From an uncultured Fibrobacteria bacterium (GTDB lineage: Bacteria > Fibrobacterota > Fibrobacteria > UBA11236), in assembly GCA_963716395.1 (NCBI GenBank), contig OY970309.1:1876402-1940401 (forward strand): DNA of 64,000 bases. The letters run 5' to 3'. Below are positions 20,301 through 42,517 of the stretch, piece by piece. The notes beneath the pieces are model-generated. The model saw only the letters and a program-made list of their open reading frames with translations, was not told the origin of the DNA and made no database searches. Made by a program: the position numbers and the translations under genes. Position 1 is the first letter of the stretch. Each line of letters begins with the position of its first letter.

Positions 20301-20301
20301 C

Positions 20302-24993: not shown

Positions 24994-26139
24994 ATGCCAG
25001 CCCCAACTTCTTCTGCCCCGCCTTGCGCGCCGCCGCCGGTTGCCCCGACGGTGTTGCTCGTCATTCTCACCGATCTTTCCACGGACCACCGCTGCTTCAA
25101 GTGGGCCAAGAGCCTGCGGCAATGGGGGGAACATCCCGTGATTTATTGCGATCAACCGCGGCATGCGTTGGGCGAAGCCTGGAGCGGCTTCGACGTGCGC
25201 ATTCTGACGCGCCGTTCGCATTTGCAGGAATTCCTTCCGGTATTTGCGGCTTTTTGGCGGCGCCTCGCGCCCGCGCTCTGGCGCACACCGGCCCGGATTT
25301 GGATTGCCCTGGACGCGCCGCCGCTGCTGGGGCTGGCCTTTATCGGCAAGCTGCGGCGGCGCACCGTGATCTACGATGCGCACGAACTGTTCCTGGAAAC
25401 TCCGATGGTCTTGTCACGGCCGGGCCGCCGGATTTTCTGGTGGCTGTGGGAGCAGGGCGGTTTTGCGCTCATTGCCCGCGCCGTCACGGTCAGCCCCCCG
25501 ATTTTGGCGCGCCTGCAGCAACACCATCGGGCGGTGGGGTTTTACCTCTTGCCCAATATGCCCTTTCGCGTTTCCCGACCATCCGAGCCGAATCGCGATG
25601 TACCTCACGGTGAAATACGCTTGATCTTTCAGGGCGGATTGCGCACGGCTTCGGGGTTGCCCGAACTGTTCGCCGCGCTGGCGGAACGACCCGCCTGCCG
25701 CCTGGATATTTACGGCGACGGAGTCGAAGGCGATAACGTGCGCGCCGCCGCCCGGCACGAGCACCTCGGAGAGCGCGTGGCTTTTCACGGAGCCGTTCCC
25801 TTTGAGAGCCTGCCCGCAACTTTGGAGCGGGCCCATCTCGGCGTGCACCTCATGCAACCGGTATGCGGTAGCTTCGCCCTGACCTGGGCCAACAAAATTT
25901 TCGATTACGTGCATGGGCTTTGTCCGGTGCTACTCAGCGACAATCCTGCGCATCAGTCTCTGTTGCATGAGTTCCGCGTCGGCGTCACGGTCGACGCCTT
26001 TTCCACCTCGGCCATCGGTGGCGGGATCGACGCCTTGCTGGCCGGCTACCCCGCTTTTGTCGCGGCTTGCCGCCGGGCCCGCGAGCAATGGCATTGGGAA
26101 GCCTTCGCGGCCAACCTGGGCCCCTTTCTGGGACTATGA
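24994..26139 (+). CDS. Glycosyltransferase (GT-B fold, GT4-like)
   Basis: ORF 24859..26139; start placed at Met 46; C-terminal GT1/GT4-type motifs (FDYVHGLCPVLLSD). Confidence 0.8.
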   Translation: MPAPTSSAPPCAPPPVAPTVLLVILTDLSTDHRCFKWAKSLRQWGEHPVIYCDQPRHALGEAWSGFDVRILTRRSHLQEFLPVFAAFWRRLAPALWRTPARIWIALDAPPLLGLAFIGKLRRRTVIYDAHELFLETPMVLSRPGRRIFWWLWEQGGFALIARAVTVSPPILARLQQHHRAVGFYLLPNMPFRVSRPSEPNRDVPHGEIRLIFQGGLRTASGLPELFAALAERPACRLDIYGDGVEGDNVRAAARHEHLGERVAFHGAVPFESLPATLERAHLGVHLMQPVCGSFALTWANKIFDYVHGLCPVLLSDNPAHQSLLHEFRVGVTVDAFSTSAIGGGIDALLAGYPAFVAACRRAREQWHWEAFAANLGPFLGL

Positions 26140-27605
26140 GCGAAACTCCGGGGTCGTTGGGACGCGCCGCCGGATCGGCCTTGCGCTGGAACTCCGTCGG
26201 CGTCGGGGTATCCATGGTGTCGCAATTCGTGCAGTTGCTGGTGCTGGCGCGCCTTCTGGCTCCGCGTGAATTCGGATTGGCGGCATCGGCTCTGGCCGTT
26301 GCCGGGTTTGCGCAGGGCTTCACCGATTTGGGGCTTGGCAATGCCCTGGTCCAGCACGGCGAAGTCGACAACCCGCTTTGGTCCAACGCGTGGCGCGCTT
26401 GCGCCGGCACCGGATTGATTCTGGCTGCGGCGCTTTTCGCCTCGGCACCGGCCTGGGCCGCGCTGCTGCGCTTACCGGGACTGGCCCCGGTATTGGGCCT
26501 GGCAGCGCTGGCTTTGCCCTTCGCCGGGCCGGCCAGCGTGTACCAGGCCAAAGCGCAACGGGAGCTTCGCTTCGCGCGCTTGGCGACCGCCGAAATCGTC
26601 GCCGCCCTCTTCTCCCTGGCGGCGGCTCTGGCCTGGGTGGCCTGGCGCCGCGATGCCCTGGCCGTGGTGGCGGGGCAAATCACTTTGACCTCCGTGCGCT
26701 GCCTGGCCTTGGCGCCGGCCTCGCGCATCGCGCCCCTGCGCGGACCCTGGCGTTGGTCCGATCTGCGCCCCGTCGCCCGTTTCGGCGGCTTTCAATTGGG
26801 CGAACGCGCACTGAACGCCGCGGCCGGCAATCTCGATCGCCTACTGGTGGCCCGCTGGCTTGGCGCCGCGGCCGCGGGTTATTACACCTTGGGATCGCAA
26901 ATCGCCTTGCGGCCCATGGTGCTGTTGGCACCGTTCGCCTTCCGCACCTTGTTCCCGCTGTGGTCGCGGTTGCAGGACGACCGCCGCCGCATCGCGGTTT
27001 CTTTCATCCACTCCGTATCCCTTCTGTGCCTGTTGGCCGCGGGGGTATACGCCCTGCTCGGCGGTCTGGCCCCCGCGTTGGTGCGGGTTGTGCTTGGTCC
27101 GGGATGGGAACCCGTATCACCCGTGTTACGCATTCTGGCGGGCCTCGGCTGGATTTGGACCGCCTCGCAACCCTTGGCCAGCGCCACCCTGGCCCTTGGC
27201 CGCGCGCGCGCCAGCTTTTGGCTCAACGTGCTGGTGCTGGCCACCAATGCCGCCGGGGTGCTGGTGGGGTTGCATTTCGGCCTCACGGGTGCGGCCTGGG
27301 GCATTTTGGCCGCGGCCGCGGCACTGCTCCCGCTCGACGTGATGCTTGTCCGCCGCTGGTTGCAGATTCCGGCGCGGCAATTTTTGGCGGCCGCCGCCCG
27401 GCCCTTGCCCGCGGCCCTGGCGGCGGGGATTGCCATCGCCAACCTGATCGCGTTGCCGTGGTGGTCAGCCTGGCCGAGATTCGCGGCGCTGGCGGTGCAG
27501 GGGATTTTAGCCGTCGCTGTCTATGCGGCGGCGTCCCGGGTATTTCATCGCCGCGGCTGGCCTGAGGCTTGGGTTGAAATGAAGACAAAAATTTTTCGTG
27601 TTTAA
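26136..27605 (+). CDS. Polysaccharide/oligosaccharide flippase (Wzx, MOP superfamily)
   Basis: ORF 26067..27605; start placed at Met 24, overlapping the GT stop as ATGA; polytopic membrane protein with Wzx-like topology. Confidence 0.8.
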   Translation: MSETPGSLGRAAGSALRWNSVGVGVSMVSQFVQLLVLARLLAPREFGLAASALAVAGFAQGFTDLGLGNALVQHGEVDNPLWSNAWRACAGTGLILAAALFASAPAWAALLRLPGLAPVLGLAALALPFAGPASVYQAKAQRELRFARLATAEIVAALFSLAAALAWVAWRRDALAVVAGQITLTSVRCLALAPASRIAPLRGPWRWSDLRPVARFGGFQLGERALNAAAGNLDRLLVARWLGAAAAGYYTLGSQIALRPMVLLAPFAFRTLFPLWSRLQDDRRRIAVSFIHSVSLLCLLAAGVYALLGGLAPALVRVVLGPGWEPVSPVLRILAGLGWIWTASQPLASATLALGRARASFWLNVLVLATNAAGVLVGLHFGLTGAAWGILAAAAALLPLDVMLVRRWLQIPARQFLAAAARPLPAALAAGIAIANLIALPWWSAWPRFAALAVQGILAVAVYAAASRVFHRRGWPEAWVEMKTKIFRV

Positions 27606-27651: not shown

Positions 27652-30351
27652 TTAATGCGCGTTCAACACCAAGCGGCGCCATACATGGCCGTCTGGTTGG
27701 CGTAATTGCAAGACCACCAAACCCTCGGACAGGCCGTGTAGGTCCACCGAGCTGCCGTCGGAGGCAGGCTGCAAGATCAAGCTGCTAACGCCGTGGCCGT
27801 TGATGGGGGTGACCGTCAATTGCGCCGCTTGCGACAGTCCAAAAAGACGGAAACGGCCGTTGCCCAGGTTTTGCAGGACAAGGTCCTTCGCCGCAGACGA
27901 CGGCCGGACGCCCGCATTCCCCGGTAAAATTTGAAAGACGTGATCGCTGAGGTCACGGGTACGCCCGAAATACTCATACACGGTGACCAGGCAGCGGTTT
28001 GAAACCAAGGATTTTCCATCCAAAGAATCGGGCAACTGGAAGGCGAAGCGGCCCCAATCGGCATCGCCGACGCGCACCGAACTGGTGCGGGTGAGGGGAA
28101 TCCAACTCGCGCCGCTATCCACGGAAAGCTCGATGCCAACCGAAAGCACCCACGACGTGTCGGCGGTCCAACGCACAATCAGGGAATCGCCGACTCGATA
28201 TTGCTCGCCCCCGTTGGGCGCATTCACCTGCACGGGTGTGGGCGCATCGCTGTAGGCTTCGATCGCGGCCAAGCCATAACCGCCGCCGTCGGCCGCGCTG
28301 AGCGAGATGCCGAGTCCGTTGCTGTCGGATACCGTGACATCCGTCTCAAAAATCATTGCCCCGATGGCACCCGCGGGCTTGGCCGGCGCCGCGAAGGGCG
28401 CTCCGATGGTTTGACCTTCGAGTCCCACGCTCAAACTTGAGGTTGCCTTCGCCGACGCATCGTTCAAGCTGGTGAAATGCAGACGCACGTGATAGCGGTT
28501 GTTGGGTACCGGCAGGGTCAAACCGGAAGGGCTGTTGCGATAGAGGCGGTAGGCGACCGCGGGAGCCGGGTCGATGACCGAATCCAGTTGCACGATGGTG
28601 TCGCTTTGCCGCACCAGCGGCATCGTACCCAGGAGGGAGGTATCCGGCAGCCAGCCCGCACCCAGGGCGGGTTCAGCGGCATAGCGCCATACGCCTTTGG
28701 CCACCACCACCGAAGTGGTGCACACCACGGCCCCTTCAGACCCGTAAGCGGAAAAGGTGTGGAAGACCTGGCTCGAATCCGCGGTGGCTTGTCCGCCGGA
28801 GGTGAGATGCAAACCGGAAGAACCGGTCCAGGTCAAGGGCGATGCCAAAGTCCAGGGCCGTCCGATTTGATCCTTTCCATCCGCCGCGAGCTGCACCGTG
28901 TCGCCCGGCCGGAGCACGGCCGTATGCGGACGCGGCACCAGGGTGGTGAGCGCCGGATTGGCATACAGGAAGGTTACGGTGTAAGCCGCTGAATCGACGC
29001 CCTGGCCATAGCTCAAAACCACACGGGCCCTATAACTTCCCAGGGGCAGATTTTTGCGGGTCACGGTGTTGACCACCTGCGGGGCATTGGTGCCATTGGC
29101 GAGAATCGTGACCCGCAGCCAGGTGGTGTCGGAATCGGGATAGGCGGCCGTCAACGGCGGCAAAACGCCATCGCCGGCGTTGGATACATGCGTCGTGTCG
29201 GGTCCAGGGTCGGCGCTGTCTTGCGGCAGCGCGGTGAACAGGAAGGCATCGCGATCCAGGCGAAGAGTGGCCGGGGTTACGCCGTTTTTGACCCACAGAT
29301 GCGGGGTCAGATTCACCCCGTCGCCTTCCAACACCCGCAGCAGGCGGCTGGGACCGGAGGTATCGATGCGCACGATGTAGAGATCGCCCGAATCGGCGAT
29401 ATCGACGTCTTTGGATCCGGTGGCCGTGAAATAGTCTTCGTCGGTGGACCATTCGGGGTTACCCCAGAATAGATTGCCGCTGCTGTCGTTGTTGCAGTTG
29501 TCACCGGGAATGCCCATGTACCAGAAGGGATGATCGATGTCGGGATCATTCCAACCCCGGATGAAAATAGCCTTGTGGTTGTCGTAAACCTTGCCCTCCA
29601 CCGTGCCTTGCCCCGAGGTCAAATACATCATGCGGTCCTGGCGCGTGGGATCGGTCGACATGCTGATCGAGGCGTTGCAACCCGACAGCCATCCCGAGGT
29701 CAGCCAGTTTTTCGAGGCCAGGTAGGCCGTATCGATTCGGGTGGAATCGAGTTCGTACATGCCGGTGCTGTGGTGTGACGAAGCGCCCCACCGCCCGTCG
29801 CGCGAGCGACCCGTCGACATCAGATAGGGCACCAGCATCGTGGCCGGCCCCAATGTGTCATGGCCGTTGACGATGCGCCGGATATAGGTGCCCCCGCTGG
29901 CGGGCGGCCAGGTGGGGTCATTGATGTCGCCCAAGGTGTAGGTCACGTATTCGTTCCCAGTGCCGGGTTGCACCCACCAATGGGGCTCCAACGATTCGCC
30001 GCTGGGACGATCCACGCTGCCGCAGTAAACCGCGTATTCGGTTTGCGAGTTCTCGACCAGGTCGCGCACGAACACGCTATCGAAGCGTTCGTAGAGCACG
30101 CGCGTTCCGTCCCAACTGATCATGGGGTTGGCGGCCTCGGTCGTGGCCACCCGGTGTTCCACCAGTACGCTGTCGTCAAAGTCGAGGTAATAAATCTGGT
30201 AGGTGTAGTCCCGGATGAACGCGACTTTGCCGGTGCGGCCGCCCAAAAAGGCGCGCACCTCCGGGCCGGTGACCAGGGCCTTGGCCTCCGCGGGCCGCCA
30301 GACCGACAGCATCGCCGCACCCACGGCGGCGGCCCACCCGAAAAATTTCAC
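27652..30351 (-). CDS. Large secreted multidomain protein (beta-propeller-like N-region, Ig-like repeats, possible C-terminal sorting domain)
   Basis: ORF 27652..30423; start placed at GTG (MKFFGWAAAVGAAMLSVWRPAEA signal peptide) overlapping the SGNH stop as GTGA; beta-rich repeats; C-terminal ~80 aa resemble a Por/T9SS-type sorting domain. Confidence 0.6.
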   Translation of the reverse strand: MKFFGWAAAVGAAMLSVWRPAEAKALVTGPEVRAFLGGRTGKVAFIRDYTYQIYYLDFDDSVLVEHRVATTEAANPMISWDGTRVLYERFDSVFVRDLVENSQTEYAVYCGSVDRPSGESLEPHWWVQPGTGNEYVTYTLGDINDPTWPPASGGTYIRRIVNGHDTLGPATMLVPYLMSTGRSRDGRWGASSHHSTGMYELDSTRIDTAYLASKNWLTSGWLSGCNASISMSTDPTRQDRMMYLTSGQGTVEGKVYDNHKAIFIRGWNDPDIDHPFWYMGIPGDNCNNDSSGNLFWGNPEWSTDEDYFTATGSKDVDIADSGDLYIVRIDTSGPSRLLRVLEGDGVNLTPHLWVKNGVTPATLRLDRDAFLFTALPQDSADPGPDTTHVSNAGDGVLPPLTAAYPDSDTTWLRVTILANGTNAPQVVNTVTRKNLPLGSYRARVVLSYGQGVDSAAYTVTFLYANPALTTLVPRPHTAVLRPGDTVQLAADGKDQIGRPWTLASPLTWTGSSGLHLTSGGQATADSSQVFHTFSAYGSEGAVVCTTSVVVAKGVWRYAAEPALGAGWLPDTSLLGTMPLVRQSDTIVQLDSVIDPAPAVAYRLYRNSPSGLTLPVPNNRYHVRLHFTSLNDASAKATSSLSVGLEGQTIGAPFAAPAKPAGAIGAMIFETDVTVSDSNGLGISLSAADGGGYGLAAIEAYSDAPTPVQVNAPNGGEQYRVGDSLIVRWTADTSWVLSVGIELSVDSGASWIPLTRTSSVRVGDADWGRFAFQLPDSLDGKSLVSNRCLVTVYEYFGRTRDLSDHVFQILPGNAGVRPSSAAKDLVLQNLGNGRFRLFGLSQAAQLTVTPINGHGVSSLILQPASDGSSVDLHGLSEGLVVLQLRQPDGHVWRRLVLNAH

Positions 30352-31055
30352 CGGAGCACCGCTGCGATGGAATCGGCCAGAATCGAGGCGATGGCTGCAT
30401 GGCCGTGATTGCCGGGATGCCATTGGATGGCAGGATCGGCATAGCCCGAGTTATAAGCGTAGTTGGCGGAGTCTTTGGCGAGGGCCGTGATATCGACGAG
30501 ATGGACATCGTCAATTCCCTGCATGGCCTGGAGAACCGCGGCCGTGCGGAGGGCTGTCAGGGTCGTGTCGTTCCATACCGACAGGCAGAAAATGGGGAAG
30601 TCGCCGCCTTGCCGCAGGGCCCACAAAAGTTCGCGATATTGAAAGAGAAGTTGGCCGGTTTCCACTTCGAGGTCATTCGAATTCTCGCCCAATTGCACCA
30701 CCACCCAGCGCGGATGGGCTTGGGTCAGGTCCCAAGTCACATTGTGAAAATGTTCGTCGATGGGGCCGTCGCAAACCTCGCAGTCGCGGCGGCCATAGAA
30801 GATGCCCGCGGCGACGCCGAGTGGCTGCAAATCGCGGATGGTGGAATGGACGTAATCGCTGTCCGGAACCGTGGCTGCCATGCCGTTCTCTTGGCTCCAA
30901 CCGATGGACGGCAGCGAATCGTGCAAGGTGATGCTATTACCCAAAAACAGCACATTCGGCGGTTGTGTTTGCGTGTTGAACATGCAGGCCTGCAGGATCG
31001 AAATCCCGATCCAGGCAACCCCCCCACAACTTAAGATACGCAAGGGCCACCTCAT
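30348..31055 (-). CDS. SGNH/GDSL-family hydrolase
   Basis: ORF 30348..31217; start placed at Met 55 (signal peptide MRWPLRILSCGGVAWIGISILQAC); GDS(L)-like block LFLGNSIT and C-terminal HPGNHGH. Confidence 0.75.
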   Translation of the reverse strand: MRWPLRILSCGGVAWIGISILQACMFNTQTQPPNVLFLGNSITLHDSLPSIGWSQENGMAATVPDSDYVHSTIRDLQPLGVAAGIFYGRRDCEVCDGPIDEHFHNVTWDLTQAHPRWVVVQLGENSNDLEVETGQLLFQYRELLWALRQGGDFPIFCLSVWNDTTLTALRTAAVLQAMQGIDDVHLVDITALAKDSANYAYNSGYADPAIQWHPGNHGHAAIASILADSIAAVLR

Positions 31056-31130
31056 CCGGGTGAATAATTTACTTGATTGCTTTTCTCCGCCATGTGCACC
31101 GGTAGAGGACCTGGACCTTTTTGATCGGCC

Positions 31131-33083
31131 ATGTGCGGCATCTCCGGCTATTTCGCCTTTGCCGGTCCGGTGGAAGATCCATCGGCCTTGCAACGCATGA
31201 ACCGGGCCGTGGCCCATCGCGGGCCCGACGGCGAAGGTTTGTTTCTGTTACAACGCGCCACGGGCCAGGCGCGCGCGTTTTGCGGAACGCGCACGCCCAT
31301 GACACCGCCCGAACTCGGCCCCTGCGCATCGGATTTTCGCTTCGCACATGATGTGGCCCTGGGCCATCGCCGCTTCGCCATCCTGGATTTGAGTCCGGGC
31401 GGGCATCAACCGCTGGTCGGCGACGGCGGCGCGATGGCGCTGTGCTTCAATGGGGAGATTTACAACTATGTGGAACTACGCGCCGAATTGGAAAAGTCGG
31501 GCGCGATCTTCCGCACGCGCGGCGACGCTGAAGTGCTGCTGCAAGCCTACCGCCATTGGGGCGAAGCGTGCTTCGAGCGCCTTGCCGGTTTTTGGGCCCT
31601 GGCTTTGTGGGACCAAAAACACGGTCTTTTGCTGGCGCGCGACCGGCTGGGCAAGGCGCCGCTGTATCATACATGTTACGGGGGGCGCCGGTGGTGGAGT
31701 TCGGAAATCAAGGGGCTGTTGGCCGCCGCGGGCCGCCGCGCCTTCGCGGTCCGGCCGCAGGCCGCGGCGTGGTTCGCGCGCGCGGGGTTGCGCGACTTCG
31801 GGGGCGAAACTTTTTTCCAGGGCATCCGCACCTTTCCCGCGGCCAGCTTTGCCTGGGTGCGTGAAGACGGCGACTTCGCGCTGCGGCGCTTTTGGCGGCC
31901 GCCCGCCGCGCGGCTGCGCCCTTCCGAAATCTCGGCAGCCGAGGCGGCGGTTGAATTGCGCCAGCGCCTCTTCGCGGCCGTGTCGCTGCGGCTGCGCGCC
32001 GATGCGCCCGTGGGGTTGGAATTAAGCGGCGGTCTCGACAGCTCGACCCTGGCGGCTTTCGCGGCCCGCGCCGCCGAACCGTCGGCGCCGCCTTTTGCGG
32101 CCTTCACCGTCGGCTTTCCCGACACAGCCTGGAATGAAGCGCCCTTTGCCCGGCAAGTTCTCGCGTGTTGGCCTGGGCGTTTCACCCCGCGCGAACTTGT
32201 GCCCGACGCGCACGCCGTGCTGCGAGGCCTGGCCGCCTTTCACACGCACATGGATGAACCCATCCATTCCCCCAACATGGTGATCAACCAGGAAATTTGG
32301 CGGCGCATGGCCGCCGAGGGTATCCGCGTGAGTTTGAACGGAGCGGGCGGCGACGAAGTGTTCGCCGGCTACGGCAGCGAATATTTCGGGCCCTTTGTGC
32401 GCGGATTGATCGAACGGGGCCGCTTCGCCACCGCGGCGCGCGAGTTCGTCCGCTGCAGCGAACGCCCGCCGCATTCGGCGGCGGCGTGGCTGCGACTGGC
32501 CTGGATGTTGCTGCCAGAAGGTTTCCGCCGCGGCGTGCGTCCGCCTTTTCCCGCCCAAGAGATCGACCCCCTGCGGTGGCCGCGCGGCGCCTGGCCCGAA
32601 GCTTCTCCCGAGTTCGCGCAGCGGCTGCTGGATCATCTCGGCGATTACAAAATGAATTACTGGCTACGATCGGGAAACACTTCGTGCATGGGCGTGCCGC
32701 TCGAAGTGCGGCTGCCCCTGCTCGATCACCGCGTGGTGGAATGGGCCTGCCGGTTGCCGCCGGAATATTTAATCCGCGACGGCTGGCTCAAATGGATTTT
32801 GCGCCGGGCCGTCGAACCCTGGCTGCCGCCCGAGGTCACTTGGCGGCGGGTCAAAATGGGATTTCCCTTTCCTTTGGCCGCATGGCTGCGAACGGTCAAG
32901 CCGGCTTTGATGGCCTTGGGCCGGGGCGACGCGCCCGACTTTCTGGATCGCGGACGATTGTTCCGCCATTATGATTTCCTGGCCCATCGGTATCCGGCGT
33001 ATTTGTGGCGCTGCGTGTCGGTGCTGTTGTGGTGGAAGGTCGCGGTGAACGGCGAAACGCCGGTTCTCGACGCCGCGACGTGA
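31131..33083 (+). CDS. asnB: Asparagine synthase (glutamine-hydrolysing), AsnB family
   Basis: 650 aa; N-terminal MCGI glutaminase nucleophile; synthetase PP-loop region (LSGGLDSS). Confidence 0.9.
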   Translation: MCGISGYFAFAGPVEDPSALQRMNRAVAHRGPDGEGLFLLQRATGQARAFCGTRTPMTPPELGPCASDFRFAHDVALGHRRFAILDLSPGGHQPLVGDGGAMALCFNGEIYNYVELRAELEKSGAIFRTRGDAEVLLQAYRHWGEACFERLAGFWALALWDQKHGLLLARDRLGKAPLYHTCYGGRRWWSSEIKGLLAAAGRRAFAVRPQAAAWFARAGLRDFGGETFFQGIRTFPAASFAWVREDGDFALRRFWRPPAARLRPSEISAAEAAVELRQRLFAAVSLRLRADAPVGLELSGGLDSSTLAAFAARAAEPSAPPFAAFTVGFPDTAWNEAPFARQVLACWPGRFTPRELVPDAHAVLRGLAAFHTHMDEPIHSPNMVINQEIWRRMAAEGIRVSLNGAGGDEVFAGYGSEYFGPFVRGLIERGRFATAAREFVRCSERPPHSAAAWLRLAWMLLPEGFRRGVRPPFPAQEIDPLRWPRGAWPEASPEFAQRLLDHLGDYKMNYWLRSGNTSCMGVPLEVRLPLLDHRVVEWACRLPPEYLIRDGWLKWILRRAVEPWLPPEVTWRRVKMGFPFPLAAWLRTVKPALMALGRGDAPDFLDRGRLFRHYDFLAHRYPAYLWRCVSVLLWWKVAVNGETPVLDAAT

Positions 33084-33097
33084 TGAGGAGTTTCCGA

Positions 33098-34651
33098 TTA
33101 TTCCACCGCAAAAATCCGGTAATCAAAAACATTTTGTTGCCAGGGTAATGCGGAAGGTTTGTCCTTCCCCGTGTAAATCGCTTCAAAGAGGGGGGAAAGT
33201 TTTTGGGCGTCTGGATTTAATACCACAAAACGAACTCCACGACGCTTACAGGCGGAAATGAAATCCGCCATCGAATCCACGGGAAACTCCGGAAACTCCC
33301 GATTGTACAAATACGTTCCCCAACGCGGCGCGCCCCCATTGAAATACGGTATTTGATCGGGTAAAGTGCGGAAATACAAATCGAAGTCGCTGGTAAAAAC
33401 CTGAGTCGCTTTCCGCACTCCTAGGTCGCGCAGGTCGGCCTCAATGGCATGAAAGTCCCGTTGCAGGGTAGAGCGCTTCTCAAGCAAACGAAAATCCCGC
33501 AGGAGATTCACCCCAAGCATCAAGGCCACCAGAGTCCAGGCGCCCCAGGTCACCCACGCCGTCCTCCGATGGGAGAGAACATTCCCGTCGAATCGGTATT
33601 CCCATGCCGTCAGCATCACCATTCCCAAGGCCAGCATGGATAGTGGCAACGCCAGTAAAATTTGCCTTCCACTCGTGGTCGCGGAAAACATCAGAAAATA
33701 AATTGCCTCCCATGCCGCCACGATCCGCATCATCCATTTCCGCTGCGGGTGACGAACCCACAGAGCGGCGATGAGGGGCGGCCCATAGGCCTGTTTAAAA
33801 GACCATAGGGCCGTCAGATATTTTTTTAGGAATAACGCCGGATCCCCGGCGATGATGGCTCCAACCGAACCGGGCAATTTCAAATCCAAGGTGCGATGCC
33901 AGTTGATTCCATACATCAAGTCGTACACATTCATGGGACCGAATTGGGTTTCCAACAGGCCATGACCGCTGGCGAGGTTCACGGCCCATTGCAGGCTATA
34001 GACCGTGAACACACCCGCCGAAACCGTGGCCATCGTTTTCCAAAGTTGGGGACGTATCACCACAATCGCCAGCACCAACATGCCATCGGCCACCAAAACA
34101 TGGTAACGGAACAACGCCCCCAAACCCAGCAGGAATCCCGCCGCCAGGAAACCCCGGCTGGGTGCGGCCTGGGGCGAATCGAAGAGCCGAGAGAAAATCA
34201 GCGCGATCCCGGCGGTGAAAAAAAACAAGGCCGCCGGATCGCCGCCCCCCGCGTTCATGTAATGGAAGAACTGCACGAACAGCGAAAGTGACACCAAGGA
34301 CAGCAAGGCGAATCCCGGCGGCAGGATTTTACGGAACAGCCAACCCGAAACCGCGAGGGTCAGGGTTCCGAAGGCGACATTGACCAGAATGGCGGGACCC
34401 GCGGGATTTCCATCGCCCAGGATGAGTTTGAGCAGCAAGCCGCATCCCACCGGGTATTGCGGGTTAAACCACGATTGCCGATCCGCCCAATGCAAATGCC
34501 GGGCGTAAAACACCGTGTCCCAAAAATCATTGTGGTATTGCTGGAAATCCAAACCCCAATTCAATGCCAACGACCCAAGCGCGAAACACAGGGGAACGAT
34601 TAACCAGCCATAGCACAAAATGCCACGAGGTCTGCTGGCAGGACTATGCAA
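33098..34651 (-). CDS. Polytopic membrane glycosyltransferase (ArnT/PMT-like, GT39/GT83-type), putative
   Basis: ORF 33098..34846; about 10 TM segments followed by a soluble C-terminal domain; start tentatively placed at in-frame TTG overlapping the GT2 stop. Confidence 0.55.
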   Translation of the reverse strand: MHSPASRPRGILCYGWLIVPLCFALGSLALNWGLDFQQYHNDFWDTVFYARHLHWADRQSWFNPQYPVGCGLLLKLILGDGNPAGPAILVNVAFGTLTLAVSGWLFRKILPPGFALLSLVSLSLFVQFFHYMNAGGGDPAALFFFTAGIALIFSRLFDSPQAAPSRGFLAAGFLLGLGALFRYHVLVADGMLVLAIVVIRPQLWKTMATVSAGVFTVYSLQWAVNLASGHGLLETQFGPMNVYDLMYGINWHRTLDLKLPGSVGAIIAGDPALFLKKYLTALWSFKQAYGPPLIAALWVRHPQRKWMMRIVAAWEAIYFLMFSATTSGRQILLALPLSMLALGMVMLTAWEYRFDGNVLSHRRTAWVTWGAWTLVALMLGVNLLRDFRLLEKRSTLQRDFHAIEADLRDLGVRKATQVFTSDFDLYFRTLPDQIPYFNGGAPRWGTYLYNREFPEFPVDSMADFISACKRRGVRFVVLNPDAQKLSPLFEAIYTGKDKPSALPWQQNVFDYRIFAVE

Positions 34652-35405
34652 GGCGCGGGGGCCTTTCCCGGAATAAACGGGATCGCCGCCAACCCCGCCG
34701 GTGCAACAGGTAAACGATTGAGGTCGCCACCACGCCCAATCCGTAGTAAACGCTGGCGCCGAATTTAATGGTAGACGCTTCCGGAAAATACTTGGTGGGG
34801 CAGGTGATTTCGGCGATGGAAAAACCGCGCTGGAAAATCTGGACAATCATCTGGTTGTCGAACAGAAACCCATTGGAATTGGCATGGTAATTCACGGAGG
34901 CCAGTACTTCCTTGGAATAAGCCCGGTACCCGGTGTGGTACTCCGATAGTTTTTGCCCTAAGCAAAGGTTTTGCAGCAAAGTGAGGAACCGATTGGCCGC
35001 ATACTTGTAGCGCGGCATTCCGCCCCGCAAGGCCTGGCCGCCGAGAATACGCGAACCAAAGACCACGGGGTACACGCCGTTTGCAATTACGCTGGCCATG
35101 GCCGACACCAGTTTCGGGGTGTATTGGTAATCGGGGTGGATCATGATGACCATATCCGCGCCCAGTTCCAACGCCTTGTCATAGCACGTTTTTTGGTTGC
35201 CACCGTATCCGCGTCGATGATCATGCACGACGACATGTCGGATCCCCAACGTCACCGCAAGCGCGGAGGTTTCATCCACGCTCGCGTCGTCCACCAAGAC
35301 CACGTCGTCGACGATATCGAAGGGCAATTCTCGGTAAGTTTTTTCCAGGGTGGCCGCCGCGTTCAGCGCGGGCAAAACCACTACCAATTTTTTACCGAGG
35401 AGCAT
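34644..35405 (-). CDS. GT2 polyprenol-phosphate glycosyltransferase (ArnC/DPM1/GtrB-like)
   Basis: 253 aa; GT-A signature (VVLVDDASVDET...DADMVIMIHPDYQYTP). Confidence 0.9.
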   Translation of the reverse strand: MLLGKKLVVVLPALNAAATLEKTYRELPFDIVDDVVLVDDASVDETSALAVTLGIRHVVVHDHRRGYGGNQKTCYDKALELGADMVIMIHPDYQYTPKLVSAMASVIANGVYPVVFGSRILGGQALRGGMPRYKYAANRFLTLLQNLCLGQKLSEYHTGYRAYSKEVLASVNYHANSNGFLFDNQMIVQIFQRGFSIAEITCPTKYFPEASTIKFGASVYYGLGVVATSIVYLLHRRGWRRSRLFRERPPRLA

Positions 35406-35590
35406 GATGCGTTAATGTACCCAACTCGAACGGGTCCACAGCAGCTCGTCTTCGCAGGTGTTGCGCCGGTCCTGCCGGGAGGACTTGCGCAAGGTCTTCC
35501 CCCATCGCGGCGTGGCCCGGCCATGCTGCATGCGATCTACTCCCGATTTTGCGAACACTCCTACCTGGGTGTAGGCAAAATCGGGGAAGA

Positions 35591-36359
35591 TCATGGCTTG
35601 CGCGCCACGAAAATCCAGGCCTCGCCGTCGTCTTCATCCCCAGCGTCGAGGCGGCAGCGTTCGATCTCTTCGCGGCCCAGTTGCTCTGCATAGCGCACGG
35701 CTTCGACCCCGAAGCCCGCGGCACGCACCCGATCCGTGAAATCACTTCCGTAAAAACGCACGTGATCGAATTGTCCGAAACGCCGATGCCGCGCGGCGGG
35801 ATCGACGACAGAGGCGTCTTCGTCGGTGGGGCCTGTGCGCAGCGGCACCTGTATGACTGCCGCGCCGCCCGGACGCAAGACGCGCCGCAGCTGGCGCAGC
35901 GCCCCGCGGTCATCGGGTATGTGTTCCAGCACGTGGCTGCACAAAATCAGATCGAAGCGTTCCGATTGCATGCCCAGGTGCGCAATGTCGACGGCAACGC
36001 TCCCGCGACCGGGTTCGCGATCCGCGGCGACATAGCGCAGTGCTCGGCAAAGATTCCAACCGGTGCCGCAGGCCGGGTTCCGGGGCGAAGTGCAGAACCG
36101 ACACGGGCTTGGATCCCAACGCCATTTCGCGATCCAGGAACAACCACAAAAGACGGTGCCGTTCCAAAGACAGGCAACCCGGACACATGGCTTCGTCGCG
36201 GGGCGGATCGCCTTTGGGCAGAAAGCGGCGAAAGCGACCGCCGCAAACCGGGCAATGGCGATGATGCCCCCGCAGCCAAAGACCGCGCAAACGGTAATAG
36301 GCGGGTCGCAGACAGGCTTTCCAGGGGCGCACTTGGGGCGATGGGGCCGGGTTGAACAA
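35591..36359 (-). pseudogene. Class I SAM-dependent methyltransferase with N-terminal zinc ribbon; apparent frameshift
   Basis: N-terminal part (Cys pairs, VLHFAPEPGLRHRL) reads in ORF 35910..36359; C-terminal part (RYVAADRE...FDLILCSHVLEHIPDD...RVLRPGG) reads in the frame of ORF 35591..35971; span is 769 nt (3n+1); frames switch near 36030-36050. Confidence 0.6.
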
Positions 36360-36425
36360 GTCTGGGAAAGTTACAATCAGGGTGTTTGCGCGGGCGGGGA
36401 ACGGCCATGCGCGCGAGGTAGGGTT

Positions 36426-37562
36426 TTAACCCGCCCCGGTAAATTGTTCCAGGGGAACCGCCTCTACGCGGTTCGAAATCGCGTAACGCTTTTCACCCGG
36501 ATAAACGACCCATAATTCATCGAGCTTTAAATCGTGCCGCGCAATGCGCAGGGAGGGCGTCAAGGTCGGCGCATCCGCGCGTTTGCATTCCACGCCGATG
36601 CGTTTGCCCCGCCGGAACAAAAGCAAATCCAATTTCGCGCCGTTATGGGTGGCCCAAAAATAGGTCTCGTCCGGCGCGCGGGCCTTGAGGATTTCCTCAA
36701 CCGCGTATCCTTCCCAGGAGGCGCCCACCTTGGGGTGCATTTCCAAATCCCGCCGCGTGCCGATGCCGAGCAGCGCGTGCAGCAGCCCGCTGTCGCGGAC
36801 GTAAATTTTCGGCGCCTTGACCTGCCGCTTTCCGAGGTTTTCGAACCAAGGCGGAAGCTGGCGCACCATGAACACGTCGGTCAGGAGATCCAGATAGCGC
36901 CGGATGGTCGTTTCGCCCAACCCCATGGCGCGCGCCAATTCGGCGCCGTTCCAGATCCGGCCGTGGTAATGCGCCAACATGTTCCAGAAACGCCGCAACG
37001 TGGCGGCGGGAATGGTGACGCCGAGCTGGGGCATGTCCCGCTCCAGGAAGGTCTGGATGAATTGGTTTCTCCATGCCAACGAATCGGCCTCCGAACGCGC
37101 CGTATACGCCAGGGGGTAACCTCCCCGTAGCCAATGCCGGGGCTGGGCCTTGGCCCCCAAATCGCCCAGTCGAAAGCCCTCCAAGGTCAGGGTTTCCATA
37201 CGCCCGGCCAGGGATTCGGAGCTTTGTTTCAGCAATGCAGGCGTGGCGCTGCCGAGGATGAGAAAACGCGCGGGCAGGGGCCGGCGATCCGCCAGTACGC
37301 GCAGAAGGGGAAACAACTCGGGGCGGCGCTGGATTTCATCCAGCACCACGAGACCCTTGAGGGGGCGCAACGCGGTGTCGGGCTCCTGCAGGCGGGCGAG
37401 GCTGCGCGGATCTTCCAGGTCGAAGTAATTCAGCGATGTCGGCGGAACCAGGGAGCGGACCAAGGTGGTTTTACCGCTTTGCCGGGGGCCCAGCAAGGCC
37501 ACCACGCGGGCGCGTTTCAGGGCGGAGCGAAGGCGCGCCAGATCGGCGGGACGGGTGAGCAT
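36426..37562 (-). CDS. AAA+ ATPase (DUF4143/COG1373-type)
   Basis: ORF 36426..37937; start placed at Met 126 (MLTRPADLARLRSALKRARVVALLGPRQSGKTTL, Walker A); Walker B-like VVLDEIQ. Confidence 0.8.
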   Translation of the reverse strand: MLTRPADLARLRSALKRARVVALLGPRQSGKTTLVRSLVPPTSLNYFDLEDPRSLARLQEPDTALRPLKGLVVLDEIQRRPELFPLLRVLADRRPLPARFLILGSATPALLKQSSESLAGRMETLTLEGFRLGDLGAKAQPRHWLRGGYPLAYTARSEADSLAWRNQFIQTFLERDMPQLGVTIPAATLRRFWNMLAHYHGRIWNGAELARAMGLGETTIRRYLDLLTDVFMVRQLPPWFENLGKRQVKAPKIYVRDSGLLHALLGIGTRRDLEMHPKVGASWEGYAVEEILKARAPDETYFWATHNGAKLDLLLFRRGKRIGVECKRADAPTLTPSLRIARHDLKLDELWVVYPGEKRYAISNRVEAVPLEQFTGAG

Positions 37563-37569
37563 GATGACA

Positions 37570-37618
37570 AGATACCATATACCATGAAATTCCACCACTT
37601 GTAGGATGAATTTCATGG
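37570..37618. promoter_or_regulatory. Tandem ATACCAT repeat plus 11-bp perfect inverted repeat upstream of the AAA+ ATPase gene
   Basis: ATACCAT-ATACCAT followed by CCATGAAATTC-N15-GAATTTCATGG, 20-56 bp upstream of the ATPase start codon. Confidence 0.4.
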
Positions 37619-37712
37619 TGTCAAAAATACCCTTCCCGATCCCGAAGCGCTTTTCCCCCAAGGCGTAAATCCATCGCCTGCGGTGGGGGGAACTCCCCGG
37701 ATCGGGGCGGGG

Positions 37713-37766
37713 CCTTTTCCAAAAAGGATCGAGACCCTTTTTGCGGTGCCGGCGTTGCAAAAAGGG
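37713..37766. promoter_or_regulatory. Paired palindromes (CCTTTTCC-AAAAAGG and CCCTTTTTGC-N12-GCAAAAAGGG) upstream of the aminotransferase gene
   Basis: 10-bp perfect inverted repeat ending about 28 bp before the GTG start, preceded by a smaller palindrome with the same core; a similar CTTTTTCC-N11-GGAAAAA site lies at about 59241-59267. Confidence 0.4.
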
Positions 37767-37794
37767 TATTTTACGCCTTCGCAAAGGAAGCACC

Positions 37795-38985
37795 GTGAGC
37801 AAACCGGCCCTGGACGGCGGCAAACCCGTGCGGTCCCGCAAAAATTTTCTGGTGTTCGGCGCGCCGCAAATCGGGCCCGAAGAGATCGCGGGCGTGGTCG
37901 ATTCGCTGCGCCGCCGGTGGATCGGCACCGGCCCCAAGGTCGCCGCCTTCGAGCAGGCCTTCGCGGCCTACAAAGGCGCGATTGCCGTGGCCGTCAACTC
38001 TGGCACCGCGGCCCTGCATTTGTCGATTCTGTCTCTGGGCATCGGCCCCGGCGACGAAGTCATCACCACGCCCATGACTTTTTGCGCCACGGTCAACGCC
38101 ATTCTGCACGCCGGCGCACAACCGGTACTGGCCGACTGCGATCCGGTTTCGCTCAATCTCGATCCCGCGCACGTCGAGCGCAAAATCACCCGGCGCACCA
38201 AGGCCGTTTTGCCCGTGCATTTCGCCGGCCGCGCCTGCGACATGCGCGCCCTGATGCGCCTGGCCAAGGCGCATCGACTGCGCGTGGTCGAAGATTGCGC
38301 CCATGCCCTTGAAACCGAAACCATGGGCCGCAAGGCCGGCACCTTCGGCGATCTGGGCTGCTTCAGTTTCTACGTCACGAAAAACCTGACCACGGCCGAA
38401 GGCGGCATGGTGATCACCGCGCGGCAAAACCTGGCCGATCGCATCAAGCGCCTGGCCTTGCACGGCCTGTCTCAGGACGCCTGGAAGCGGTTCTCCGATG
38501 CGGGCTATGTGCATTACGACGTGGTCGAACCCGGATACAAATACAACATGACCGACTTGCAGGCCGCCATCGGCCTGCCGCAATTGCGTCGCCTCGAGTC
38601 GAATTGGAAGCGCCGCCGCGCGGTCTGGAACCGGTATCAGGAGGCTTTCGCCGATTTGCCGGTGGAGCTTCCGGCCGAAGCGCCGTCCGACGAACGGCAT
38701 GCCTACCATCTGTACACGCCCCGGGTAACGCGCGGGTTTCGCCGGAGCCGCGACTGGGTGTTGGCCGCCCTGACGGCCGAAGGTATCGGCGTGGGCGTAC
38801 ATTACCGCGCTTTATGCGACCACCCGTATTATCGGCGCGTCTTGGGCTGGAAGCGCCGCGACTTTCCGGTGGCGGCCGATATCGGGGAACGCACCGTGTC
38901 GCTGCCGCTGTCGGCGGCACTCACCGCACGCGACGTAGACGACGTCATCGCGGCTTTCCGCAAAGTGATGCGGGCCGGAGCCTGA
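37795..38985 (+). CDS. DegT/DnrJ/EryC1/StrS-family PLP-dependent sugar aminotransferase (ArnB/WecE-like)
   Basis: ORF 37741..38985; start placed at GTG behind AAGGAAG; conserved aminotransferase blocks incl. FSFYVTKNLTTAEGG (PLP-Lys region). Confidence 0.9.
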   Translation: MSKPALDGGKPVRSRKNFLVFGAPQIGPEEIAGVVDSLRRRWIGTGPKVAAFEQAFAAYKGAIAVAVNSGTAALHLSILSLGIGPGDEVITTPMTFCATVNAILHAGAQPVLADCDPVSLNLDPAHVERKITRRTKAVLPVHFAGRACDMRALMRLAKAHRLRVVEDCAHALETETMGRKAGTFGDLGCFSFYVTKNLTTAEGGMVITARQNLADRIKRLALHGLSQDAWKRFSDAGYVHYDVVEPGYKYNMTDLQAAIGLPQLRRLESNWKRRRAVWNRYQEAFADLPVELPAEAPSDERHAYHLYTPRVTRGFRRSRDWVLAALTAEGIGVGVHYRALCDHPYYRRVLGWKRRDFPVAADIGERTVSLPLSAALTARDVDDVIAAFRKVMRAGA

Positions 38986-38995: not shown

Positions 38996-40183
38996 ATGGC
39001 TTTCTCTCTGCGCGCACGCGCCTGGCGCTTCATTCTTCTCATGGGCTTCGTCAGCCTGTTCGCCGACATGGCCTACGAGGGCGCACGCGGCCTGGCCGGT
39101 CCCTTTCTGTATTCACTCGGAGCTTCGGCCGCGGTGGTGGGCATGGTCTCGGGCCTGGGGGAATTGGTCGGCTACGCCTTGCGCGTGGTGTTCGGCGCCT
39201 GGAGCCAGCGCACGGGGCGGCATTGGTTCTTCGCCTTGGTGGGCTATGCCGTCAACCTCTGCGCCGTGCCGCTGTTGGCCCTGGCCACCACCTGGCCCGT
39301 AGCCGCGGCGTTACTGGTCTGCGAACGGCTGGGCAAGGCCGTGCGCAGCCCTTCCAAAGACAAGCTCTTGTCGCACGCAGCCGCGGCCGTGGGGCACGGC
39401 AAGGGATTCGGCTTTCATGAAGCCATGGACCAAACCGGCGCCGTGGCCGGGCCCCTGCTCGGTGCCTTGGGGCTGGCGTGGTGGGGCTACCGCGGCGCCT
39501 TCGGCGTGCTGGTTTTTCCGGTGCTGGCGGCCCTTTCCGTCCTGGCGGTGGGGCGTTTCGTGTTTCCCAAGCCGGAACAATTGGAAATCGCGGCGACGGA
39601 TAAAAACGCACCGGACGGGAAACTTCCCCGCGTCTTCTGGATTTACCTCGCAGCCGCGGCCTTGCTGGCCTTCGGGTACGCCGACTTTCCCCTCATCGCC
39701 TATCACTGGCGCAAGGCTTCGCTGCTCGGGGCGGCGCAGGTACCGCTGGCCTATGCCGCGGCCATGGGCGTCGATGCCGTGGCCGCCTTGCTGTTCGGCA
39801 TCTGGTTCGACCGCGTCGGGCTCAAGCTGCTGCCGCTGTCGGCCCTCCTGGCCGGCGCGGCCGTGCCCTTGGTTTTTTCCACCCGCCTGCTTTTCTGCGG
39901 TATCGGTATTGTGCTGTGGGGCCTGGCCCTGGGAGCGCAGGAAAGCACGCTCAAAGCCGGCATCGCCAAACAAATTCCGGCCGGCCAAAGGGCCGGAGCC
40001 TACGGGATTTTCCATGCGGCCTTCGGCGTCGCCTGGTTTTTGGGCAGCGCGGCCATGGGCTGGCTTTACGATTGGAAGCGCGGCGCGGTGGTGGCGTTGG
40101 CCGTGACGGCGCAAGCCGCGGCGGCTTTGGTTTTTTTCTGGGCCGGAAAAGCCGCAGCAACGCGTTTTCCGGCTCCTGCTTGA
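38996..40183 (+). CDS. MFS transporter
   Basis: 395 aa; 12 predicted TM segments in two 6-helix halves; central loop GKAVRSPSKDKLLSH. Confidence 0.8.
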   Translation: MAFSLRARAWRFILLMGFVSLFADMAYEGARGLAGPFLYSLGASAAVVGMVSGLGELVGYALRVVFGAWSQRTGRHWFFALVGYAVNLCAVPLLALATTWPVAAALLVCERLGKAVRSPSKDKLLSHAAAAVGHGKGFGFHEAMDQTGAVAGPLLGALGLAWWGYRGAFGVLVFPVLAALSVLAVGRFVFPKPEQLEIAATDKNAPDGKLPRVFWIYLAAAALLAFGYADFPLIAYHWRKASLLGAAQVPLAYAAAMGVDAVAALLFGIWFDRVGLKLLPLSALLAGAAVPLVFSTRLLFCGIGIVLWGLALGAQESTLKAGIAKQIPAGQRAGAYGIFHAAFGVAWFLGSAAMGWLYDWKRGAVVALAVTAQAAAALVFFWAGKAAATRFPAPA

Positions 40184-40214: not shown

Positions 40215-40526
40215 ATGAAGTCGGTCGGCATCAAAAACCTGAAGAACGGCCTGAGCCGGTATATCGATATGGTGCGCGCAGGCGAAGTGGTGTATGTGAC
40301 CGATCGCGACGAAATCGTGGCCGAAATCCACAAGCCCGTGAGCGCGCCCACGCGCATGCTTTCGCGCTGGGAGGCGTTTCTGAACGAGGAAGAACGCAAG
40401 GGGTCGATCCGGCGGGCACAACCCGTCAACCCGTTGTTCTTCGAGAATTTGAAGAAATTGAAACCGCTACCCGGAACTCCGCATCTGCAGAAGCTCTTGG
40501 ACGAAACGCGCGCCGAGCGATTTTAA
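40215..40526 (+). CDS. Type II antitoxin (Phd/YefM- or VapB-like)
   Basis: 103 aa; N-terminus IKNLKNGLSRYIDMVRAGEVVYVTDRDEIVAEI typical of Phd/YefM-type antitoxins; immediately upstream of a PIN-domain gene. Confidence 0.7.
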   Translation: MKSVGIKNLKNGLSRYIDMVRAGEVVYVTDRDEIVAEIHKPVSAPTRMLSRWEAFLNEEERKGSIRRAQPVNPLFFENLKKLKPLPGTPHLQKLLDETRAERF

Positions 40527-40527
40527 C

Positions 40528-40974
40528 GTGAGCAAGGCCTATTTCGATTCCAGCGTGGTGCTGGCCATGCTCCTGGCCGAACCCAATGGATCGGAAGCGG
40601 CCGAAATCTGGAATTCGCACGCGGTAAAACTTGCCTCGGTGCTTTTGTCCGCCGAATGCACGATCAACCTGCGCCGCTACCACGCGCAGGCGACGCGTAG
40701 TCCGGCGGGATGGTTGCAGCGCATCGAATCCTATTTCGATGAAATCTATGGCGGCCTTGTGACCAAGGAAGTGGATGGGGAAATATTGGCCATCATCCGG
40801 CGCGAAAAAATCCTCGCGGAGTGCCGTACGCTCGACGCCATTCATCTGGCCACGGCCCTTTACTTTCGGGAAAAAGCCGAAGAAGACATCCGCATGGTTT
40901 CCTTTGACCGTCGATTCTCTGAAACCGCGCGCCGGCTCAAGTTCAAGGTGGTTTCCAGCGCTGCGGCCCGATGA
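40528..40974 (+). CDS. vapC: PIN-domain toxin (VapC-like ribonuclease)
   Basis: 148 aa; GTG start 1 nt after the antitoxin stop; PIN acidic residues (YFDSS..., LDAIHLATAL). Confidence 0.8.
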   Translation: MSKAYFDSSVVLAMLLAEPNGSEAAEIWNSHAVKLASVLLSAECTINLRRYHAQATRSPAGWLQRIESYFDEIYGGLVTKEVDGEILAIIRREKILAECRTLDAIHLATALYFREKAEEDIRMVSFDRRFSETARRLKFKVVSSAAAR

Positions 40975-41074: not shown

Positions 41075-42517
41075 ATGCAGCAGCCCACCGATCAATACGA
41101 CAACCCCTTGATTCGCCGTTACGCTTCGGCGCCCATGAGCTTTCTCTTCTCGCCGCAGTTCAAACATTCCACCTGGCGCAAATTGTGGGTCCACCTGGCC
41201 GAGGCCGAGCAGGCGCTGGGGCTGCCCATCACCGACGCGCAAATCGCCGAACTCAAGGCGCATGTCGACGACATCGATTTCGCCGAGGCCGAACGCCAGG
41301 AACGCAAGGTGCGCCACGACGTGATGGCGCATGTGCATGCCTATGCCCAGCAATGTCCCCAGGCGGCGGGCATCATCCATCTCGGAGCCACGTCGGCCTA
41401 TGTCACCGACAACACCGATTTGATCCAGATGCAAGACGGCTTGAATCTCTTGCGTCGGCGCACCTTGCGCGTGATCGCGGCCCTGGCCGAATTCGCGCGC
41501 CGTTGGAAAGATCAACCCGCGCTCGGGTTCACGCATTTTCAACCCGCGCAACCGGTCACGGTGGGCAAGCGCGCCTGTTTGTGGATGCAGGATTTTCTCT
41601 TCGACGCCGAAGACCTCGACCGCCTGGCGCAAGGCCTGCCCTTTCTCGGGGTCAAGGGCACCACGGGCACGCAGGCCAGTTTCCTGGAATTGTTCGCCGG
41701 CGATCACGACAAGGTGAAAAAGCTCGACGCCGAGGTCACGCGCCGCGCCGGGTTCGTGCGTAACCTGCCGGTTTCGGGTCAGACCTACACCCGCAAACTC
41801 GACGCCCAGGTTTTGGCCGCGCTGTCGGGGCTGGCGCAAACGCTGGCGAAGTTTTCCACCGACCTGCGCCTTTTGCAGCATCTCAAGGAAATCGAAGAAC
41901 CCTTTGAAAGCGGGCAAATCGGATCGTCGGCCATGGCCTATAAGCGCAATCCCATGCGCTGCGAACGCATCGGATCGCTGGCCCGCTTCGTGGAATCGCT
42001 GTCGGCGTCGACCGCCTTCACCGCGTCGACCCAATGGTTCGAGCGCACGCTCGACGATTCGGCCAACAAGCGGCTGGCCGTGGCCCAGGCCTTTCTCGCC
42101 GCCGACGCCATGCTGCTGTTGGCCGAAAACGTGGCCTCGGGGCTGGTGGTGCATCCGCGGGTCATCGAACGCCGGCTGGCCGAAGAGCTTCCCTTTCTCG
42201 CCACCGAAAATATTCTCATGGATGCGGTGAAGCGCGGCGGCCACCGCCAGGAATTGCACGAACGCATTCGCGTACATGCGCAAGAGGCCGCGCGCCGCGT
42301 CAAGGACGACGGCTTGGAAAACGATTTGCTCGACCGCATCGCCGCCGATCCCGCTTTCGCCATCGACGCCGCGGCCCTGCGGCGCGAACTGGATCCGCGC
42401 CGCTATACGGGCCGCGCGGCGGCGCAGACCGAGGAATTTTTGCGCGATCACGTGGATCCGTTGTTGGCCCGCGATGCTTCCTGGAAAGACCTGGAATCGC
42501 CGGCGCTGCGGGTGTAA
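41075..42517 (+). CDS. purB: Adenylosuccinate lyase
   Basis: ORF 40775..42517; start placed at Met 101 (MQQPTDQYDNPLIRRYAS...); fumarate-lyase signature region (GSSAMAYKRNPMRCERI). Confidence 0.95.
   Translation: MQQPTDQYDNPLIRRYASAPMSFLFSPQFKHSTWRKLWVHLAEAEQALGLPITDAQIAELKAHVDDIDFAEAERQERKVRHDVMAHVHAYAQQCPQAAGIIHLGATSAYVTDNTDLIQMQDGLNLLRRRTLRVIAALAEFARRWKDQPALGFTHFQPAQPVTVGKRACLWMQDFLFDAEDLDRLAQGLPFLGVKGTTGTQASFLELFAGDHDKVKKLDAEVTRRAGFVRNLPVSGQTYTRKLDAQVLAALSGLAQTLAKFSTDLRLLQHLKEIEEPFESGQIGSSAMAYKRNPMRCERIGSLARFVESLSASTAFTASTQWFERTLDDSANKRLAVAQAFLAADAMLLLAENVASGLVVHPRVIERRLAEELPFLATENILMDAVKRGGHRQELHERIRVHAQEAARRVKDDGLENDLLDRIAADPAFAIDAAALRRELDPRRYTGRAAAQTEEFLRDHVDPLLARDASWKDLESPALRV

Follow-up and report, generated by a model that had tools for sequence, protein, structure and literature searches.

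A window of 64,000 nt from an uncultured Fibrobacteria bacterium, the whole stretch of DNA analyzed here, carries on its minus strand a gene for a zinc-ribbon class I SAM-dependent methyltransferase (35591..36359) whose conserved parts lie in two different reading frames. The question raised by this locus is whether the interruption belongs to the organism, as an inactivating mutation, a recoding site, or a boundary between two genes, or whether it belongs to the deposited sequence.

A first-pass annotation made from the letters and open reading frames had described a single methyltransferase gene interrupted by a +1 shift, with an N-terminal zinc ribbon and motif I in one frame and a C-terminal RVLRPGG region in another, a span of length 3n+1, and a C-terminal frame lacking its own start; it attributed the shift to a sequencing/assembly indel or to a genuine inactivating mutation. 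These structural points are borne out: the two halves are seen in different frames in the three-frame translation, the span is 769 nt (36359-35591+1 = 3x256+1), and a listing of every codon of the C-terminal frame from 36372 down to the ATG at 35971 contains no ATG, GTG, or TTG. According to the three-frame translation of 36420-35560 and the codon listing, the N-terminal frame begins at TTG 36359 or GTG 36332 and ends at a TGA stop (35910-35912); it reads ...CPVCGG...CPGCLSLERHRLLWLFL...VSVLHFAPEPGLRHRLESLP and then passes into nonsense (STALCRRGSRT...). The C-terminal frame, which is offset by +1, stays open between 36372 and a TGA stop at 35591-35593 and reads ...ALRYVAADREPGRGSVAVDIAHLGMQSERFDLILCSHVLEHIPDD...RVLRPGG.... 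Removal of 1 nt yields a continuous protein of 255 aa from the TTG or 246 aa from the GTG. The GTG is the more likely start, as it fits the N termini of related proteins (M-x-x-W-K).

The part of the gene that is read in its native frame (36045..36332, minus strand) encodes a helix, the four-Cys zinc ribbon, a further helix, strand beta1, and helix 95-102, with ...ESLP as its last residues. The Cys codons of the ribbon lie at 36254, 36245, 36185, and 36176; in an alignment of 19 sequences, C39, C59, and C62 are invariant and C36 is nearly so. A motif-I-like sequence, VLHFAPEPG, is encoded at 36072-36098 in the beta1 region. Past the shift site, the N-terminal frame continues as an out-of-frame tail of ~43 codons (35910..36040, minus strand), in which the rare codons ACT, CTA, and TGT are abundant because the reading is out of frame, up to the stop at 35910-35912. 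Over the first part of this tail, the other frame holds the conserved segment LRYVAADREPGRGSVAVDIAHLG (35972..36040, minus strand), which comprises strand beta2 and the invariant residues Y109, D113, and D124. This segment is out of reach of any start codon and is untranslatable in the present sequence. The C-terminal open reading frame that follows (35591..35971, minus strand; 126 aa; FDLILCSHVLEH...RVLRPGG...) starts at the first ATG available, matches Methyltransf_23 with an E value of 1e-12, and is annotated in the source record as a separate protein (P0127). Just 3' of the methyltransferase stop codon lies an imperfect 17-nt inverted repeat (35542..35585, minus strand), possibly a transcript-end hairpin.

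In general, homologs of the corrected protein are abundant and uninterrupted. A search with this protein retrieved 4861 proteins at E <= 1e-10, the best of which (P0001) gave E = 4e-99 at 66% identity, a match that lies far beyond chance and upholds the description of one gene split by a +1 shift. Among the best 120 homologs listed of the 4861, nearly all are 225-285 aa long, and the closest full-length ones cover >90% of the query. The outcome was the same at the nucleotide level, where both halves are matched in one tblastn segment at 79 of 79 loci in GTDB representative genomes (best identity, 53%) and at 80 of 80 loci in JGI metagenomes (best identity, 52%). The first-pass annotation had left room for homologs built as two genes; those examined are single genes of ~250 aa. 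It had also proposed a comparison with related strains, and on six contigs of the three closest traceable relatives (P0006, P0007, and P0009) the gene is intact and the shift absent.

Five Pfam models score above their gathering cutoffs on the C-terminal part, namely, Methyltransf_23 (47.5-48.3 bits; cutoff, 27), Methyltransf_11 (40-47 bits; cutoff, 21.2), Methyltransf_12, Methyltransf_25, and Methyltransf_31. The best NCBIfam match falls far below its cutoff, and sequence matches in the PDB reach the generic SAM-binding core only. The protein belongs to an abundant, functionally uncharacterized subfamily of zinc-ribbon class I SAM methyltransferases, whose members are labeled "SAM-dependent methyltransferase" or "methyltransferase domain-containing protein" in their sources. 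With these it shares the CxxC...CPxCxSLERHR ribbon, the HFAPE variant of motif I, the YxxxD, xDxxxCxHVLEH, and RVLxPGG motifs, and a length of ~250 aa; it differs in that the frame of the window copy is split by one extra nucleotide, whereas every homolog examined is uninterrupted. The sequence after strand beta1, LHFAPEPG, is noncanonical relative to E/DxGxGxG, and its residues H90, P93, and E94 are invariant or nearly so in the subfamily alignment. D113, which is invariant in the 19 aligned sequences, stands at the end of strand 107-112 and is the predicted SAM-ribose-binding Asp of class I methyltransferases.

The shift had been placed at about 36030-36050, and alignment narrows it to four nucleotides inside that interval (36041..36044; AGCA on the minus strand, TGCT on the plus strand), where homologs have one codon. 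The AGCA sits between CCG (Pro) and CTG (Leu), and codon-level comparison with the orthologs L162-L167 indicates that exactly one of the four nucleotides is surplus; ortholog L167, for instance, reads CTG CCG GGC CTG CGC TAC at this junction. In the 19-sequence alignment, the homolog pattern at this point is L-P-x-(L/M/I/V)-x-Y-x-x-x-D, against L-P-[four nucleotides]-L-R-Y-V-A-A-D in the window, and the corrected protein crosses the junction without a gap. Aligning a single-nucleotide-corrected translation to homologs, a check that had been suggested for this gene, gave a gap-free alignment covering 92-100% of the best homolog.

To place the break in structural terms, the corrected protein was modeled with AF2 (pLDDT, 89.4; pTM, 0.86). 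The model has an N-terminal helix, the zinc ribbon, and then a Rossmann core and, together with the alignment, places the break in that core, in the loop that joins helix 95-102 to strand 107-112. In a Foldseek comparison with the PDB, the best 50 matches listed, all with a probability of 1.00, are almost all class I SAM-dependent methyltransferases or proteins of that fold, the exception, ranked second and fifth, being the [4+2]-cyclase SpnF. The corrected protein is thus predicted to have a Rossmann-like alpha/beta methyltransferase fold. The best matches by Foldseek and PDB sequence comparison, the sugar O-methyltransferases RebM (3bus) and AtmM (6uv6/6uvq) and other class I methyltransferases of small molecules, share this Rossmann-type core with E values of 3e-10 to 1e-9; however, identity is 15-21%, the TM-score is about 0.45, and these enzymes lack the zinc ribbon and carry motif I in its canonical GxGxG form. 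The likeness is one of fold and does not establish a substrate. A sugar-methylating role would, by analogy, fit a glycan locus such as the one described below.

As sequenced, the N-terminal product lacks everything from beta2 on, and the C-terminal product, which would start at M131, lacks beta1, the motif-I loop, beta2, and D113. Because the established class I architecture needs parts that are missing from each product, neither fragment can have methyltransferase activity.

The methyltransferase gene lies among genes of envelope-glycan type. Upstream in window coordinates are genes for a GT9 glycosyltransferase (23704-24885, minus strand), a GT4 glycosyltransferase (24859-26139, plus strand), a Wzx-type flippase (26067-27605, plus strand), a 923-aa protein with no Pfam match (27652-30423, minus strand), a GDSL-like protein (30348-31217, minus strand), an AsnB-like amidotransferase (31131-33083, plus strand), a 506-aa multipass membrane protein with no Pfam match (33098-34618, minus strand), and a 253-aa GT2 protein (34644-35405, minus strand) that resembles polyprenyl-phosphate glycosyltransferases and has a C-terminal hydrophobic segment. 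On the other side are genes for an AAA_14/DUF4143 ATPase (36426-37616, minus strand), a DegT aminotransferase (37741-38985, plus strand), an MFS transporter (38996-40183, plus strand), a PhdYeFM antitoxin/PIN toxin pair (about 40215-40974, plus strand), and PurB (about 41075-42517, plus strand). The window also encodes an outer-membrane efflux protein, a TonB-dependent receptor plug, an HldE-like enzyme, and GT9, and for this reason the bacterium is taken to be Gram negative.

On the six contigs of the three relatives, PurB-DegT is divergent from methyltransferase-AsnB-DsbA-Wzx-GT4-GT9, with PurB seen on the P0006 and P0007 contigs only (L162 and L167) and a DegT-methyltransferase spacing of about 57 nt in all three lineages. 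Their methyltransferases are 55-61% identical to that of the window, which by gene order and sequence is their positional ortholog in a conserved DegT/AsnB/Wzx/GT4/GT9 locus. Relative to this arrangement, the window locus has made lineage-specific gains, namely, the ATPase, the GT2 and membrane protein genes, and the MFS gene with the toxin-antitoxin pair. The DUF4143 ATPase gene (36426-37616) separates DegT from the methyltransferase, which are divergent neighbors in the three related lineages. The genes for GT2 and the 506-aa membrane protein (33098-35405) lie between the methyltransferase and AsnB and are absent from the relatives; we take these two, together with DegT, to resemble a lipid-linked sugar-transfer module of the ArnB/ArnC/ArnT type. 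The MFS transporter gene and the PhdYeFM/PIN pair, between DegT and PurB, are likewise extra relative to the related loci, and the 923-aa open reading frame (27652-30423) occupies the position of the relatives' DsbA gene in the glycan locus. This frame and three others (3297-4286, minus strand; 22143-23483, plus strand; 20239-21117, plus strand) have coding-like GC3 and no Pfam match.

The age of the lesion was gauged from sequence conservation. The window methyltransferase retains each of the 40 columns that are invariant in the 19-sequence alignment, in both halves and including those in the 24 untranslatable codons. Identity between the window and L167, L162, and L164 is 0.59-0.61 for the methyltransferase, with 0.67 for the ingroup pair L167-L162. 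For the neighbors, the corresponding values for the window versus L167/L162, with those for L167-L162 in parentheses, are 0.78-0.81 (0.88) for DegT, 0.75-0.76 (0.89) for PurB, 0.62-0.63 (0.75) for GT4, and 0.51-0.52 (0.60) for Wzx. Expressed as a ratio of window to ingroup branch, this amounts to 1.4 for the methyltransferase and 1.4-3.5 for the genes of five neighbors, so that the window branch of the methyltransferase is not accelerated and, set against the branches of its neighbors, is if anything on the short side. The alignment and the pairwise identities gave no sign of relaxed selection in this gene in the form of a second lesion, lost invariant residues, or a longer branch. Because the invariant residues are kept and the branch is not accelerated, the shift is either very recent or not real.

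A direct comparison was available in Logan contigs of run ERR11594399, from the same strain (L001, L081, and L168), which were compared with the window over 16,762 nt. L001 covers 28644-35618 with one substitution (35532) and one C4/C5 indel (about 35584-35587), both within the last 90 nt, at the contig tip and by the inverted repeat at 35542..35585. L081 (38043-43909) matches the window exactly. Over 53613-57532, L168 shows one indel and is otherwise identical at 3919 of 3919 positions. In all, the window and the Logan contigs differ by two indels and one substitution, and the 12.8 kb flanking the methyltransferase are identical save at the one contig tip. The Logan contigs stop at 35618 and resume at 38043, and 36041-36044 thus lies outside their coverage. 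A same-species sequence over the site was found neither in the GTDB representatives (best, 53%) nor in the JGI metagenomes (best, 52%). Exact-protein look-ups of both fragments, four N-terminal starts, and two ATPase starts found only the C-terminal fragment, on the source contig only.

The Logan gap (35619-38042) spans the methyltransferase, the DUF4143 ATPase, and the 5' end of DegT and could reflect strain heterogeneity or low coverage. The contigs retrieved are short (3.9-9.4 kb), look-ups made to extend the comparison found none carrying the AcrB and OEP genes, and the assembly of ERR11594399 looks fragmented, such that a gap over the methyltransferase is nothing out of the ordinary. Close to where the Logan contigs break off there is an inverted repeat of 23 nt at 83% (35662-35684/37866-37888), which was judged to be due to chance.

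The indel in L168 concerns a second frameshifted gene. This gene, for ABC-transporter permease 2 (BPD_transp_1; 56181-57009, plus strand), is split in the window by one extra G at 56381, in a nonhomopolymer context (GATCT[G]CATGCGC). L168 lacks the extra G, and its permease frame is intact at 275 aa, with the BPD_transp_1 domain complete and an ATG that overlaps the stop codon upstream. The source assembly therefore demonstrably carries at least one gene-breaking one-base insertion missing from a second assembly of this strain, with which it possibly shares reads. A context common to the two insertion sites (TCTTTG-N4-GCA(C)TGCGC) is not significant, as 13% of random site pairs align equally well.

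Before an error and a mutation can be weighed against each other, the readings in which the present sequence would be functional have to be considered. Programmed +1 ribosomal frameshifting, or other recoding, would make full-length enzyme from this sequence; the perfect conservation of both halves and the +1 direction are all that speaks for it, and the latter is the one feature shared with prfB-type frameshifting. In contrast to prfB, the site has no CUU-UGA-like sequence, no Shine-Dalgarno-like stimulator upstream (CACCGGUUGGAAUCUUUG), and no conservation in orthologs. At CCG-AGC-A (CCG-AGC-ACU), the P-site tRNA has no possible +1 pairing, an in-frame stop is lacking, the 0-frame codon AGC is common (15.3 per 1000), the fold of the 141-nt RNA is ordinary (z = -1.24), and the absence of a homopolymer argues against transcriptional slippage as well. 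Moreover, programmed sites are conserved, whereas this shift is absent from the orthologs L162-L167 and from 159 related loci. On account of site anatomy, codon usage, RNA fold, and nonconservation, we rejected programmed frameshifting, to which we attach practically no credence; a real extra base combined with noncanonical +1 recoding at CCG-AGC-A, which would have to operate without a slippery sequence, stop codon, or known stimulator, is just as improbable. A functional locus would also result if the enzyme were naturally split or encoded by two genes with starts of their own, or if the gene were a contingency gene whose phase variation is driven by a repeat. These readings are very unlikely, if marginally less so than recoding. 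The ATG at 35971 and the annotation of the 126-aa frame as a protein are compatible with two genes, but that ATG lies 24 conserved codons past the start of C-frame homology with no start codon before it, homologs are single proteins of ~250 aa, and both halves fall within one segment in each tblastn match. The two-gene or split-enzyme reading is refuted by the lack of a start in the C-terminal frame and by homologs that are single genes. As for phase variation, TRF detected no repeats, tandem or simple-sequence, in the region around the site (35400-36500), and the site itself (CCGAGCACTG) does not hold even two identical bases in a row between CCG and CTG; phase variation was rejected because there is no repeat at the frameshift site.

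What remains is an extra nucleotide at 36041-36044 that is either erroneous, inserted into the source contig at assembly or consensus, or a genuine, very recent one-base insertion. We consider an assembly or consensus indel the probable explanation, by a fair but not overwhelming measure, and a young pseudogene, which might be polymorphic in the population, a possible but distinctly less likely one. If the nucleotide is an error, the organism would probably make an intact methyltransferase of ~246 aa, and this enzyme would presumably methylate a sugar in the envelope glycan whose synthesis the locus encodes. If it is real, the N-terminal product would consist of 105 native residues and a 43-residue nonsense tail, the C-terminal frame would start at M131, and a glycan methylation would be lost. 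The lesion is, after all, present in the deposited sequence, which has its C-terminal part annotated as a 126-aa protein; the 12.8 kb of flanks match the Logan contigs except at one tip; and the break, in a loop of the Rossmann core, would leave a complete SAM site in neither piece. Surface-glycan genes are often hit by inactivating mutations, and this locus has been remodeled: the ATPase insertion removes the short divergent intergenic region of the relatives, and there are extra GT2 and membrane protein genes. A real loss of the methyltransferase in such a lineage is biologically plausible and counts against an error. The pristine state of the gene, with no second lesion, its conserved residues kept, and a branch that is not accelerated, speaks against a pseudogene, although young real pseudogenes are likewise free of decay.

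An assembly error is favored because an insertion of the same type, the G at 56381, is not found in the Logan assembly of this strain, and a technical origin has in this way been demonstrated here for this type of lesion. Two indels to one substitution is, in addition, unlike real divergence, and this dominance of indels points to consensus error rather than strain divergence. Also counted for an error were the conservation of the gene in synteny, intact on six contigs of relatives and at 159 more distant loci, and the confidently predicted fold of the corrected protein. The source contig, a single sequence of 3,754,783 bp held by NCBI and ENA, would by its length come from a long-read assembly. 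Isolated one-base insertions in conserved genes, a second such insertion in the window, and differences dominated by indels are what residual indels in long-read consensus assemblies look like; homopolymers are the commonest context of such indels, and in this respect the methyltransferase site differs, as it is not a homopolymer. An estimate built on the single in-body event at 56381 gives one event per roughly 17 kb and predicts a few more in the 47 kb outside the comparison. The prior for frameshift pseudogenes, by comparison, is about 1-3% of genes. Since the error rate predicts further insertions while far fewer than one genuine frameshift pseudogene is expected among about 40 genes, we assign the larger share of probability to an error and a clearly smaller one to a pseudogene.

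Under either of these two leading readings, the frameshift is no new kind of element, and the finding is an ordinary one, of use chiefly for annotation as a sign that the assembly should be polished and that the 126-aa protein of the record is a fragment. Should the extra nucleotide be an error, the record wrongly gives a 126-aa fragment in place of a conserved 246-aa methyltransferase, and, with the ABC permease gene (56181-57009) broken likewise, the assembly needs polishing before claims of pseudogenes or glycan variation are made from it. Should the base be real, an uncultured Gram-negative bacterium would very recently have lost one methylation step from its remodeled envelope-glycan locus, which is an ordinary event. 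The substrate of the zinc-ribbon methyltransferase subfamily that stands beside DegT and AsnB is a modest question in its own right, independent of the frameshift.

Among the related loci, the syntenic GT4 gene of L165 (6657-8122; GCA_964416695.1, CAYQFG010000028.1) is called as two open reading frames of 120 and 200 aa, and the near-identical Logan locus L164 has a single 459-aa GT4 gene. The split GT4 gene in the L165 MAG is possibly another assembly or frameshift problem.
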